Below, one piece after another: positions 2,308-59,057 of a stretch of DNA of 64,000 nucleotides. The translations under genes were made by a program, and so were the position numbers. How positions within the stretch are numbered: position 1 is the stretch's first letter; every line of letters starts with the position of its first letter. This DNA is from Escherichia coli (GTDB lineage: Bacteria; Pseudomonadota; Gammaproteobacteria; Enterobacterales; Enterobacteriaceae): the NCBI RefSeq assembly GCF_030013595.1, contig NZ_CP122768.1; one strand, 5' to 3'. The notes under the pieces are model-generated. The model made no database searches, had not been told where the DNA came from, and saw only the letters and a program-made list of their open reading frames with translations.

Positions 2308-2883
2308 TTATTTAATAAACGTAAACGCCGTGGTTACCCGCTTCACGCCGCTTACCCGGCTGGCAATATCTGCCGCCGCTTTCGCTTCACGTTCAGTCAC
2401 TAGTCCCATCAGGAACACTTCACCGTTTTCGGTGGTCACTTTCACGTTGGACGATTTCACCAGGTCGCTGGTTAAGAGCTGCGAACGCACTTTGGTGGTG
2501 ATCCACGTATCGTTAGACGCTTCGCCCAGACCAATCGGCTGGCCCTGACGAATCTCGTTATACACTTCGTTGGCACCGTCTACGCCCATAGCAATCTGTT
2601 TGGCGCGAGCCGAAAGTTCAGCGTTTGGTGACTGCCCAACCAGCAGCACTTTGCCCTGATAGGCCGTTACATTAATGCGCGCTTCTTTCTTAATCTGTTC
2701 GTCTTTCGACAATGCGCTGTTCACGCGCACTTCCAGGGTACCATCGTCCACCTGGGTGCCGACACTGCGTGGGTCAGTTGCGGCTTTGGTACCTACAGCA
2801 GCGGTACCCACTACGGCAGCGGCAACACAACCTTGCAACAGCAGCGCGGAAAGAAGGACTGCGATTGGCGATAATGCCTTCAT
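2308..2883 (-). CDS. dolP: Outer-membrane BON-domain lipoprotein DolP/YraP (191 aa)
   Basis: ORF 2308..2883; N-terminal lipoprotein signal MKALSPIAVLLSALLLQGC; two BON-like repeats. Confidence 0.85.
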   Translation of the reverse strand: MKALSPIAVLLSALLLQGCVAAAVVGTAAVGTKAATDPRSVGTQVDDGTLEVRVNSALSKDEQIKKEARINVTAYQGKVLLVGQSPNAELSARAKQIAMGVDGANEVYNEIRQGQPIGLGEASNDTWITTKVRSQLLTSDLVKSSNVKVTTENGEVFLMGLVTEREAKAAADIASRVSGVKRVTTAFTFIK

Positions 2884-2892
2884 GTATTCTCC

Positions 2893-3483
2893 TTAAACAT
2901 CCTGGTGAGGGAAAAGCGTGTTATCGATCAGATCGCACAGGCAATTTACCGTCAGCATATGCATTTCCTGAATGCGAGCACTACGATGCGAAGGAATGCG
3001 GATCTCCACATCCTGTGGCCCTAACAAACCTGCAAGTTCACCGCCGTCATAGCCGGTTAATGCCACAATGGTCATATCACGCGTAACGGCAGCTTCTACC
3101 GCTTTTACAATATCGCGGCTGTTGCCACGGGTGGAAATGGCTAACAATACATCTCCCGCATGACCCAGCGCCCGCACCTGTTTTGCATACACTTCATCAT
3201 GTAAGCGATCGTTGGCAATCGCCGTTAAGACAACATTATCAGTATTTAGTGCAATGGCAGGTAAGCTGGGCCGCTCCGTTTCGAAACGGTTGATCATGCT
3301 GGCAGCAAAATGCTGTGCATTGGCAGCGGAAGTTCCATTACCACAACAGAGGATTTTGTTGCCATTGAGCAGAGACTGAACCAGCGTCATGGCTGCACGG
3401 GAGATGGCATCCGGAAGCGCCTCTGCCGCCGCAATTTGAGTTTGAATGCTTTCAGTGAAGCAAGCTTTAATTCTTTCTTGCAC
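2893..3483 (-). CDS. diaA: DnaA initiator-associating protein DiaA (SIS domain, 196 aa)
   Basis: ORF 2893..3483; SIS/phosphoheptose-isomerase-like sequence; synteny. Confidence 0.85.
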
Positions 3484-55948: not shown

Positions 55949-57193
55949 TTAATTACGCAGGGCGCTATTTGCCAGACGATCGTCTTCTGCCTGGCAAGCT
56001 GCCGCAGTGAATAGCACGTCAGTTGAAGAGTTCAGCGCGGTTTCGCAAGAGTCCTGCAATACGCCGATGATAAAGCCGACGGCAACCACCTGCATGGCGA
56101 TATCGTTCGAAATACCGAACATATTACAGGCCAGTGGGATCAGCAGCAGAGACCCCCCCGCCACGCCGGATGCGCCACAGGCACACAGAGAAGCCACTAC
56201 GCTCAACAGCAGCGCTGTGGGCAGATCGACCGGAATACCCAGCGTATTAACCGCAGCCAGCGTCAACACGGTAATGGTGATTGCTGCGCCCGCCATATTG
56301 ATGGTGGCTCCCAGCGGAATAGAAACGGAATAGGTATCGCGATCCAGATTCAGCTTTTCACACAGCGCCATATTCACCGGAATGTTCGCTGCAGAGCTGC
56401 GGGTGAAGAAGGCATACACACCGCTTTCACGCAGGCACAGCAGCACCAGCGGGAACGGGTTACGACGAATTTTCCACCACACCAGCAATGGGTTAACCAC
56501 CAGCGCCACCAGTAACATACAGCCAACCAGCACGACCAGCAGTTGCGCGTAGCCCCACAGTGTGGAGAAACCGGTGGTTGCCAGGGTAGAAGAAACCAGA
56601 CCAAAAATACCGATCGGTGCGAAGCGAATGACCAGTTTCACCATAAAGGTGACGGCATTCGACATATCGTTGATCAGGTTTTTGGTGGTCTCGTTACCGT
56701 GACGCAGTGCGAAACCGAGGCCAATTGCCCACACCAGGATCCCGATGTAGTTACCTTTCAGCAGCGCGTCGATGGGGTTGGAAACCATGCTCATTACCAG
56801 CCCGCGCATCACTTCTACAATGCCTGACGGCGGCGAAATATCACCCGCGCTACTGGATAAGTGCAGGGTAGAAGGGAAGGCAAAGCTGAAGACTACTGCG
56901 GCCAGAGCAGCAGAGAAGGTGCCCAGCAGATAGAGGAACAAAATAGGGCGGATATTGGTTTTCTGCCCGTGCTGGTGGTTAGCAATAGATGCCATTACCA
57001 GCATCAACACCAGGATGGGGGCAACGGCTTTCAGTGCGCCGACGAACAAAGTACCTAACAGACCAACAGCTTCCGCCGCGGGTTTTGAGATCCATGCCAG
57101 AAGAATCCCCAGAACAAGGCCGACCAGGATTTGTTTTACCAGGCTGCCATGAGCCAGACGCCGGAATAGCCCCGGTGAACGTTGCGTAGTCAT
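55949..57193 (-). CDS. sstT: Na+-coupled serine/threonine transporter SstT (414 aa)
   Basis: ORF 55949..57193; DAACS-family transporter sequence. Confidence 0.9.
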
Positions 57194-57479
57194 TTTTCGA
57201 TCCTTTCATTGTGTTGTCGCACATCCCTGGTGCGTTCTGTCGACGCATCTTTCAGGATGTAACAAAGTGTTTGCAAGGTCGAGTATAAGGAAAGTTACAG
57301 CTTCGGGAAGCGAAAAATGCTGGATTTTAAAGAGAGGTCATATTTTGCAACTTAATGGTTACATTTATTTGACATAAACAGAGGGAAGGACTGGCTACTA
57401 AGGCTGATTAGATAACATATGGGCAAAACTATTTGGAATATGAGAACGGTTGCGCTCTTTTAATGTGCTATGCCATATA

Positions 57480-57715
57480 AAGTCACTGGCGCAGGGAGCG
57501 CGCAGGGGGCGGCCAATCGCCGCCGCCCCCTGCACCCCCAGGCTCTGGCGAACAAAATCGCCGCTGCGCGGTTCCCTCAGCTTATCCCTTGCGGCTACCG
57601 GGTCGGGCGCAAGGGAACGTCCCTGTAAGATGCCCCCTCGCCGCGCATCCATGCGCGTCGCCCCGGCCTCCAGGGAACGCTTCGGCGATTTTGACGCCAC
57701 CAACACCCGTGCGGT
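57480..57715. repeat. GC-rich multi-hairpin intergenic element of unknown identity (between alx 3' end and sstT upstream region)
   Basis: Perfect 12-bp stem gcagggggcggc / gccgccccctgc (57502-57533), palindrome cgcgcatccatgcgcg, nested ccttgcg/cgcaagg pairings, and flanking ctggcg direct repeats; much more GC-rich than the AT-rich flanks. Confidence 0.4.
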
Positions 57716-57808
57716 CTTTTTGTAAAGAGCTATAAGCCGATTACATAATTAATAGCTCACCTTTGTCTGGAATGAGTTATCTCTAGTAATGGCTTAATAT
57801 ACAGCGAA

Positions 57809-58774
57809 TCATTCTCCCCGCTGCTTATCATGCCGATAATTCACCCAAGCGTTGATAATAAACGTCATCACCAGAATGCCAAACACCACGCCCAGCGAAA
57901 CGGCGATCGGAATATGGTAGAAGTCAACAATCAGCATCTTGATACCGATAAACACCAGAATCACCGCCAGACCATATTTGAGCATCGAGAAACGTTCTGC
58001 TACGCCCGCCAGCAGGAAATACATCGCACGCAGGCCGAGGATCGCAAACAGGTTTGAGGTCAGCACAATGAACGGGTCAGTGGTAACAGCGAAGATAGCT
58101 GGAATGCTATCCACGGCGAAAATCACGTCGCTCAATTCCACCAGAATCAGCACCAGCATCAGCGGTGTGGCATACAGCAAGCCATTCTTGCGCACAAAGA
58201 AATGCTCGTTGTCGATGGTGTCGGTCATACGCAAATGACCGCGCAACCAGCGCACCAGCGGCTTGTCGCCAATGCCTGATTCATCTTCATGGGCCAGCGC
58301 CATCTTCACGCCGGTAAACAGCAGGAAGGCACCGAAGATATACAGGATCCAGTCGAACTGCGAAATCAGCCAGCTGCCAGTGAAGATCATGATGGTACGC
58401 AGAACAATCGCCCCGAGCACGCCATACACCAGCACGCGGCGTTGTAATGCCGCCGGAACAGAGAAATAGCTGAACAACATCAGCCAGACAAAGACGTTAT
58501 CGACCGCCAGCGATTTCTCAATCAGATAACCCGTGAGAAAGGCCAGTGCCTGTGGATCGGCAACGGCGCGACCTTCGGTTTGCACCAGATACCACCAGAA
58601 AGCGGCGTTAAACAGTAACGACAGCGTCACCCAGACCAGCGACCAGGCCGCAGCCTGTTTCATGGTCATGGCATGTGCCCCACGACGCCCCTGCAACAAC
58701 AGGTCGATAGCCAGCATAATGGCGACAACAACAGCGAATCCGCCCCATAGCAACGGCGTGCCGACAGTATTCAT
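57809..58774 (-). CDS. alx: TerC-family membrane protein Alx (321 aa), putative Mn2+ exporter
   Basis: ORF 57809..58774; TerC family. Confidence 0.9.
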
Positions 58775-58990
58775 AGAAGTTCCTTACACATAAAAAAAAC
58801 GGCCAACGTCGGAAGACGTCAGCCGCTGCTTTTTATGCATAGACCTCGCCTTCCGGCAAGGTCTCACTTACAACAAAAAAGGAATACGTCTGCGTATTCC
58901 TTTCGGGTTGCCCGGTGACCGGATGTGGTTTTGCACACATCGTAATGACGATCGACCGGCAATGAAGTTACTCCCCTTTGCAGGTAACAA
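58775..58990 (-). promoter_or_regulatory. sraF: alx 5' leader: pH-responsive element / yybP-ykoY-family Mn2+ riboswitch (SraF region)
   Basis: About 215-nt structured leader immediately upstream of alx; assignment by position and established knowledge; motif not verified by covariance model. Confidence 0.55.
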
Positions 58991-59057
58991 AGTATGACAG
59001 ACCATTCAGTCAGTCAATGGTCTGTTACATGCCTTTTACACTGTTTTACTTTGGCAA

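Follow-up and report, generated by a model that had tools for sequence, protein, structure and literature searches.

What is the block of GC-rich, strongly folding DNA that separates alx from sstT in a 64,000-nucleotide stretch of Escherichia coli DNA (contig NZ_CP122768.1; hereafter the window)? The first-pass annotation of the window, made from the letters alone, placed this block at 57480-57715 and left it unassigned, offering a structured small RNA, a long sstT 5' leader, a decayed gene or a mobile repeat as possible identities. Judged by its sequence and position it is, with effective certainty, the already known repeat TRIP1d, and nothing sets the window copy apart from it. By analogy with two of its paralogs its most likely mode of action is that of the replication risk sequences (RRS), which stall DNA polymerases. 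The alignment of its relatives points in addition to a fold that is conserved across genera and that resembles an orphan RNA motif.

Identity of the element between alx and sstT

The published TRIP1d reference (CP027440.1:2251149-2251412) is 98.9% identical to window positions 57449-57712 over 264 of 264 nt, the yardstick for membership being identity across 80% or more of the reference, and the locus is the same, so the label 'unassigned' falls. Li et al. (2024, PMC10888264) described TRIP1d at alx-sstT, at a distance of 255 bp from the start of sstT on its upstream side and some 96 bp downstream of the alx stop; in the window the start codon of sstT is likewise 255 bp from the element and the alx stop 92-96 bp away, depending on the end taken. 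That paper, in its citation, credits the name TRIP1 to Rudd (1999). It places TRIP1a between aqpZ and ybjE/lysO, TRIP1b, which has a 125-bp internal deletion, between putP and ycdN/efeU, and TRIP1c at yohI/dusC, and its list of loci assigns these three to K-12. It reports TRIP1d in 1565 of 6725 genomes, 156 rearrangements between TRIP1 copies, and mixed orientations of TRIP1a and TRIP1c.

The earlier description of a GC-rich, insertion-like and highly structured segment is sound: in 100-nt windows the GC content is 0.65-0.71 across 57450-57699, above the 60% taken as a mark of TRIP1 repeats, and 0.36-0.44 in both flanks. Its limits had been drawn slightly short, as the core defined by the TRIP1d reference runs from 57449 to 57712, with conservation reaching about 57716 on one side and, more weakly, about 57420 on the other. 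The CTGGCG direct repeats said to flank the segment exist (57481-57491 and 57540-57550), but both are internal to the element and are not target-site duplications.

Among the identities first offered, a repeat family proves to be the correct class. All but one of 5426 complete E. coli genomes (5425) have one to five matching places, with a median of three (megablast, query 57470-57725). About 1600 of them reach 95% identity or more to the window copy, which agrees with the published TRIP1d frequency; the others reach only 80-95%, these weaker matches being paralogs at yohP-dusC, aqpZ-lysO and putP-efeU. The window copy is 86-91% identical to the copies at these three loci (88.7% to K-12 TRIP1c at dusC-yohP and 88.5-91% to copies at aqpZ-lysO), the comparison using the K-12 sequence for dusC-yohP and other strains for aqpZ-lysO and putP-efeU. 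A known repeat family in K-12 had been named as the finding that would overturn the first description; the family is indeed there, but the 398-bp alx-sstT spacer of K-12 contains no TRIP1 copy and has only its sstT-proximal 183 bp or so in common with the window. E. coli B strain C2566 (NZ_CP014268.2) does carry TRIP1d, at 99.2% identity, among four TRIP1 places.

Replication risk sequences and the conserved fold

TRIP1a and TRIP1c have a second name, as they are the replication risk sequences RRS-lysO and RRS-dusC (Pham et al. 2023, 2024; the RRS literature also includes Kusi-Appauh et al. 2026), the lysO and dusC copies being called RRS in PMC11194060, which cites Rudd's TRIP1 paper. [quoted passage not shown] Their G-rich strand, which holds a G-quadruplex (G4)-forming 20-mer, GGGGGTGCAGGGGGCGGCGG (PMC11194060), blocks polymerases. 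When the G strand is the lagging-strand template, post-replication gaps form and are bound by RecA and SSB; in the reverse orientation, with the G4 strand as leading-strand template, there were fewer gaps in vitro and no RecA/SSB peak in vivo. Deletion of both RRS is tolerated only with a 200-kb amplification, making the pair conditionally essential.

The window element has the same 20-mer without a mismatch on its minus strand (Table 1). The best explanation, to which we give a probability of roughly 75%, is that TRIP1d would act as a member of the TRIP1/RRS family in the way that RRS-lysO and RRS-dusC do. Unwinding of the duplex at the replication fork would expose the GC-rich single strand, which may fold very stably as a G-quadruplex, as hairpins or as both; the folded strand would block DNA polymerase and leave a post-replication gap, to be filled by RecA and SSB. 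Like the other copies, the element also doubles as a 264-bp homology patch for chromosomal rearrangement.

The strength of any such effect would depend on orientation. The plus strand of the whole window has a GC skew of +0.019, the composition of a leading strand, and alx and sstT, both on the minus strand of the window, lie on the top strand of K-12 at 3.24 Mb, which, from the oriC and dif coordinates we assume, we take to be the left replichore. From skew and synteny, as distinct from a mapped origin, we infer that the G4 strand of TRIP1d is the leading-strand template, the weaker orientation for gaps, and an RRS-type effect at TRIP1d would for this reason be expected to be weak. With the same assumed positions the locus is about 1.65 Mb from dif and 0.69 Mb from oriC in K-12 coordinates. 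The latter distance resembles the approximately 0.65 Mb between each RRS and dif, which may be coincidence.

The structures picked out by the first-pass annotation, namely the perfect 12-bp GC stem, the palindrome and the nested pairing, are all present (Table 1), and measured against dinucleotide shuffles both strands fold better than chance: as RNA the minus strand gives z = -4.33 and the plus strand -3.52, and as DNA the minus strand gives -5.22. Conservation of the fold was read from 59 distinct copies, obtained from a 23-nt-pattern scan of species-representative genomes (58 loci) and from BLAST-derived loci, which were aligned in the orientation of the window minus strand and given a consensus structure by RNAalifold. 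The consensus has 53 pairs, 21 of which change on both sides. Standard pairs fill 98.5% of cells, against 89.2% in column shuffles; none of 500 shuffles reaches the observed value, a control that overstates significance since the aligned sequences are related. Sliding the partners by 1-3 columns lowers pairing to 39-44% of cells, and doubly changed cells number 311 where 91 are expected. Among paired cells G·U (57) exceeds A·C (19), which identifies the folding strand as the G-rich strand, i.e. the published G4 strand; the excess fits RNA and single-stranded DNA alike, as G·T wobble cannot tell one from the other.

Compensatory change extends over the whole fold. In the closing stem P1 (helices 1-2) 5 of 11 pairs change on both sides, and over helices 1-3 the figure is 8 of 16 with at least 99% of cells paired, so that covariation supports a long P1. 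In hairpin H1, stem pairs 67-86, 70-83 and 72-81 (alignment A5) covary, although the invariance of the GGCCGGGGC..CATGGATG block in H1 is no evidence, having been fixed by the 23-nt retrieval pattern. The loop of H2 keeps its GGA in 59/59 copies. The 12-bp hairpin, which on the minus strand overlaps the G4 motif with its 5' arm, occurs in more than ten compensated arm variants (e.g. GGGGGAGGA/UCCUCCCCC and CCAGGGUGGU/GCCACCCUGG), and the terminal stem GCGCUCC/GGAGCGC becomes CGUUCAC/GUGAACG in Enterobacter-type copies. On this alignment the TRIP1 fold is more strongly conserved than the literature says. As all the hairpins are kept by compensatory change and the G4 20-mer is not, selection would appear to act on the whole multi-stem fold together with its GGA loops.

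Table 1. Features of the TRIP1d locus, in window coordinates
Feature	Positions	Strand	Basis or remark
TRIP1d core, RRS-family element	57449-57716	minus (G-rich 'sense' strand)	TRIP1d reference and comparison of copies
Weakly conserved 3' extension, ..CAAAUAGUUUUGCC	57420-57448	minus	common to the inverted E. whittamii copy at alx-sstT; partly to other copies
Closing stem P1, 5' arm CAAAAUCGCCGAAGCG	57678-57693	minus	inverted repeat and covariation
Hairpin H1, loop CAUGGAUG	57637-57662	minus	aligned to first AYGGAY hairpin of RF01731
Palindrome CGCGCATCCATGCGCG	57642-57657		inverted-repeat analysis
Hairpin H2, loop ACAGGGAC	57603-57636	minus	aligned to second AYGGAY hairpin of RF01731
Nested pairing TCCCTTGCG / CGCAAGGGA	57585-57593 / 57608-57616		inverted-repeat analysis
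Closing stem P1, 3' arm GCAGCGGCGAUUUUG	57553-57568	minus	inverted repeat
G4 20-mer GGGGGTGCAGGGGGCGGCGG, exact copy	57520-57539	minus	0 mismatches; none expected in shuffles
Perfect 12-bp GC hairpin GCAGGGGGCGGC/GCCGCCCCCUGC	57502-57513 with 57522-57533		inverted repeat, 100% complementary
Terminal stem-loop (helix 11)	57452-57501	minus	GCGCUC 57496-57501 pairs with GAGCGC 57452-57457; variable AT-rich loop
alx	57809-58774	minus	upstream neighbour; same strand as G-rich strand of the element
sstT	55949-57193	minus	downstream neighbour of the element

Resemblance to TwoAYGGAY and distribution of the family

On the minus strand the element has a single family match in Rfam, TwoAYGGAY (RF01731, Csr/Rsm clan), whose 29.9 bits (E = 0.041 in a 2-kb search) are below the gathering score of 43 bits. 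K-12 TRIP1c scores 30.9 and CFT073 TRIP1a 30.6, and other copies score 28.6-32 bits. A homolog in a gut Enterobacteriaceae genome (L066:1847-2010) exceeds the gathering score at 51.5 bits; the stretch L066:1817-2079 is 84.5% identical to the window element by blastn. The remaining Rfam matches (MIR1437, snoZ223, Zeta-pan etc., E > 1) were rejected as single GC hairpins matching by chance. The H1 loop AUGGAU fits AYGGAY, and the H2 loop is AGGGAC in the window, AGGGAU in K-12 and AUGGAU or AUGGAC in 3 of the 59 copies. [quoted passage not shown] TwoAYGGAY itself was found in human gut metagenomes, Clostridia and gamma-proteobacteria, often with a very long P1, and its alignment includes several copies from one Psychromonas genome (Weinberg et al. 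2010); it has independently been proposed to bind CsrA (Gardner and Eldai, PMC4333381). A full-text literature search for 'TwoAYGGAY' found nothing on TRIP1 or RRS, and the link appears to be unreported in the literature searched.

Core-only TwoAYGGAY elements of 62-64 nt were also seen, at L042:2218-2281 (49.2 bits, above the gathering score), L066:1594-1657 (37.8) and L043:2064-2125 (37.2). In these three species they lie head-to-head with TRIP1 copies, about 40-150 bp away, and consist of two GGA-loop hairpins joined by AG, with stems unrelated to those of TRIP1.

The 59 copies come from Escherichia species, Klebsiella, Enterobacter, Pseudescherichia, Pseudocitrobacter and Raoultella, and this span across the Enterobacteriaceae appears to be a new point. 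Against a plasmid collection, blastn matched a K. pneumoniae record at 13 places; this 5.37-Mb record is evidently a chromosome. All 33 'plasmid' matches are typed as non-mobilizable, several are megabase-sized records, and the six loci inspected carry chromosomal genes (putA/putP/efeU, pca, sit), so these matches are probably chromosomal sequence; the phage collection gave no TRIP1 match. Three loci hold the element in either orientation according to strain or species: alx-sstT (the window and E. whittamii), aqpZ-lysO (CUWW06 and CFT073) and dusC-yohP (K-12 and FDAARGOS_1252). Simple inversion in place was rejected for these loci because their inner spacers are unrelated. The ends of the element, ..CCGCAC (5') and GGAGCGCAAC.. 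(3'), are not inverted repeats of each other, no target-site duplication was found across the compared copies, whose flanks differ, and no neighbouring gene, be it for a transposase, recombinase, toxin or other product, recurs beside the 59 copies.

Several arrangements were noted along the way. Two TRIP1-family copies stand in tandem about 440 bp apart in Klebsiella pneumoniae (L012:2434-2763 and 2871-3200), a contig from an E. coli-like metagenome-assembled genome (MAG) has a head-to-head pair (L041:1-134 and 384-715), and in Raoultella terrigena a partial copy is directly upstream of a full one (L070:200-273 and 310-641). Copies on short or low-coverage contigs labelled Bacillus sp. (L072, 583 bp), Sporobacter MAG (L057) and Desulfacinum MAG (L022) are most likely enterobacterial contamination; the first has an aqpZ-type 5' flank and a putP-type 3' flank, like the TRIP1a/1b recombinants of Li et al. 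The K-12 alx-sstT spacer (L004:2075-2215, NC_000913.3 ~3239574-3239714) holds another GC-rich repeat, an imperfect palindrome whose arms are of the GGGAGAGGG/GGGGTGAGGG type, found at a median of five places per genome in 4942 of the 5426 genomes. The presence of another multi-copy repeat there suggests that this spacer is a hotspot for alternative repeat cassettes.

Rival readings and comparison with known systems

A number of observations weigh against an RRS-type role for TRIP1d. By synteny, and with dif placed as above, the locus is not at the border of the Ter domain, and the inferred orientation puts the G4 strand on the leading-strand template, for which the RRS papers report no RecA/SSB peak in vivo. 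The published gap and polymerase-block experiments cover the lysO and dusC copies, so that a role for TRIP1d would follow by homology. Within the family only 20 of 59 members have the G4 20-mer exactly, and just two of the 59, with neither the window nor the K-12 copies among them, satisfy a canonical G4 rule that asks for four G runs of three or more with loops of 1-7 (the published G4 call uses a different score). TRIP1a and TRIP1c occur in either orientation among strains, a poor fit to a strictly orientation-dependent role, and TRIP1d is present in only about 23-30% of E. coli strains, which indicates that it is dispensable. Finally, selection seems to be on the whole fold and its GGA loops, and this the G4 model leaves unexplained.

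A first rival reads the element as RNA. The G-rich strand, transcribed by read-through from alx, would form an enterobacterial structured RNA of the TwoAYGGAY type that presents its GGA loops to a dimeric protein, e.g. CsrA, and such a role could hold alone or beside one at the DNA level; we think it doubtful. It would account for TwoAYGGAY being the only Rfam match, with one homolog above the gathering score, for the architecture common to the two, for the covariation, for the GGA of H2 in every copy and for the near-consensus CsrA site of K-12, and it accords with the independent proposal of CsrA binding for a motif that is itself multi-copy in Psychromonas. No terminator is predicted between alx and the element. 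Yet the same scan associated no promoter or terminator with the element that would be conserved (promoter-like sites occur within the 3' end of alx and, on the plus strand, at the alx-proximal edge of the element), and orientation relative to the flanking genes varies by locus and strain, the K-12 TRIP1a being antisense if read through from aqpZ. The window copy and most others remain below the Rfam threshold, a folded DNA strand fits the wobble and covariation data equally well, and the constant H1 block reflects retrieval. In the supplementary gene table of an integrated-transcriptomics study of E. coli CsrA, dusC and ybjE carry 'No' in four Yes/No columns that, from their entries as opposed to their headers, we presume to be CsrA-binding calls (Potts et al. 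2017, PMC5694010); the evidence is weak, since repeat-derived reads are frequently thrown away. A broader form of the proposal, that TRIP1/RRS are enterobacterial members of the TwoAYGGAY class and that the conserved object is the whole G-strand fold with its two GGA hairpins and not the G4, we regard as speculative and on balance improbable. Were it true, the fold, as RNA or as single-stranded DNA, would be recognised by a specific protein, with CsrA as one candidate, the replication-gap phenotype would be only part, or a consequence, of TRIP1 biology, and TRIP1d, lying co-directionally just 3' of alx with no terminator predicted in between, would be the copy likeliest to be expressed as RNA.

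Selfish or neutral spread is a very unlikely explanation, in which the element would be a mobile repeat resembling a miniature inverted-repeat transposable element (MITE), landing repeatedly in a few permissive intergenic sites, its fold a by-product of transposition. The three loci occupied in either orientation with unrelated inner spacers are what it would produce, as are the range of copy number (1-5 in E. coli, 13 places or more in the K. pneumoniae chromosome), the tandem and head-to-head pairs and the internally deleted TRIP1b. Against this, the terminal inverted repeats, target-site duplications, transposase and recurrent neighbour looked for were not found, and with them the MITE option of the first-pass annotation loses its footing; phage copies were likewise not found and the plasmid matches are non-mobilizable. 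Compensatory change in the internal hairpins implies selection on the fold, and the RRS pair has a published cellular phenotype. We give next to no credence to a decayed gene, a real small-protein gene or a part of the sstT 5' leader, even though open reading frames (ORFs) of 102 aa (57398-57706, minus strand) and 91 aa (plus strand) span the element and RefSeq has a hypothetical protein there in some genomes. The 102-aa ORF, rightly called spurious at the outset, has no NCBIfam family match, 1-nt indels between copies break both frames, and substitutions follow base pairing, not codons; the protein-coding reading was rejected on the missing match and the broken frames, and the gene-remnant option goes with it. 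A leader of sstT is unlikely because the 183 bp or so beside sstT that K-12 shares exclude the element.

The RefSeq protein in question, WP_141021855.1 (L001:2429-2731, NZ_CP158426.1), overlies the TRIP1 repeat at alx-sstT and probably reflects GC-rich repeat DNA miscalled as a gene. Another hypothetical protein, WP_001323669.1 (L011:3141-3443), is annotated just beside an internally deleted putP-efeU copy (L011:3001-3127). On the other side of alx, its 5' leader (58775-59000, minus strand), which we take to be a known riboswitch or pH-responsive element, matched neither yybP-ykoY (Mn riboswitch) nor any other Rfam family at E <= 10; it does show a AAAGGGGAGUA motif and a hairpin that has a U-run and resembles a terminator.

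The preferred reading, TRIP1d as an RRS-type element, has implications for work on these sequences. To our knowledge, no bacterial sequences other than two paralogs of TRIP1d have so far been reported to programme post-replication gaps. The comparison of copies adds that their fold is kept by many compensatory changes across genera where the G4 20-mer is not, that G·U outnumbering A·C tells which strand folds, and that there is a link to the orphan Rfam motif TwoAYGGAY, with loops resembling CsrA sites. The Enterobacteriaceae-wide family, the strong covariation and the TwoAYGGAY resemblance appear to be new. With TRIP1d, about a quarter of strains, E. coli B among them, would moreover have a natural 'extra, reversed' RRS.

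Compared with the published TRIP1a-e the window copy has the same locus, the same 264-bp length and GC content, and falls in the same range of 0-5 copies per genome; what goes beyond the published set is the homologs outside E. coli, the copies of about 77% identity in other Escherichia lineages and the inverted copy at alx-sstT in E. whittamii. With RRS it shares 87-91% identity to the aqpZ-lysO and dusC-yohP copies, the same G4 20-mer and the same hairpins. It differs in that the RRS flank the Ter domain, whereas TRIP1d by synteny does not, in that the G4 of the RRS pair is on the lagging-strand template and that of TRIP1d presumably on the leading-strand template, and in its presence in a minority of strains, an RRS-type function being proposed for it by homology.

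TwoAYGGAY and TRIP1 have in common a long closing stem, a three-way junction, the same H1 loop, an AG linker, the GGA loop of H2 and a multi-copy habit. The second loop of the window element is AGGGAC and not AYGGAY, and TRIP1 is far more GC-rich and continues 3' into a further domain (12-bp GC hairpin plus terminal stem) that is missing from the Rfam model. RNAs of the CsrB/CsrC type similarly present GGA in hairpin loops near the CsrA SELEX consensus, but CsrC and CsrB have many such sites, about 9-22, whereas TRIP1 has only two and is not known to have a promoter or to be under BarA/UvrY control, and the likeness of TRIP1 to CsrA targets is one of motif. Like REP/BIME and ERIC/IRU repeats, TRIP1 is intergenic, structured, multi-copy and often 3' of genes; as was noted from the outset it is neither, since sequence similarity to them is absent, and it is longer, present in far fewer copies and built as a multi-stem fold, not as a single palindrome.

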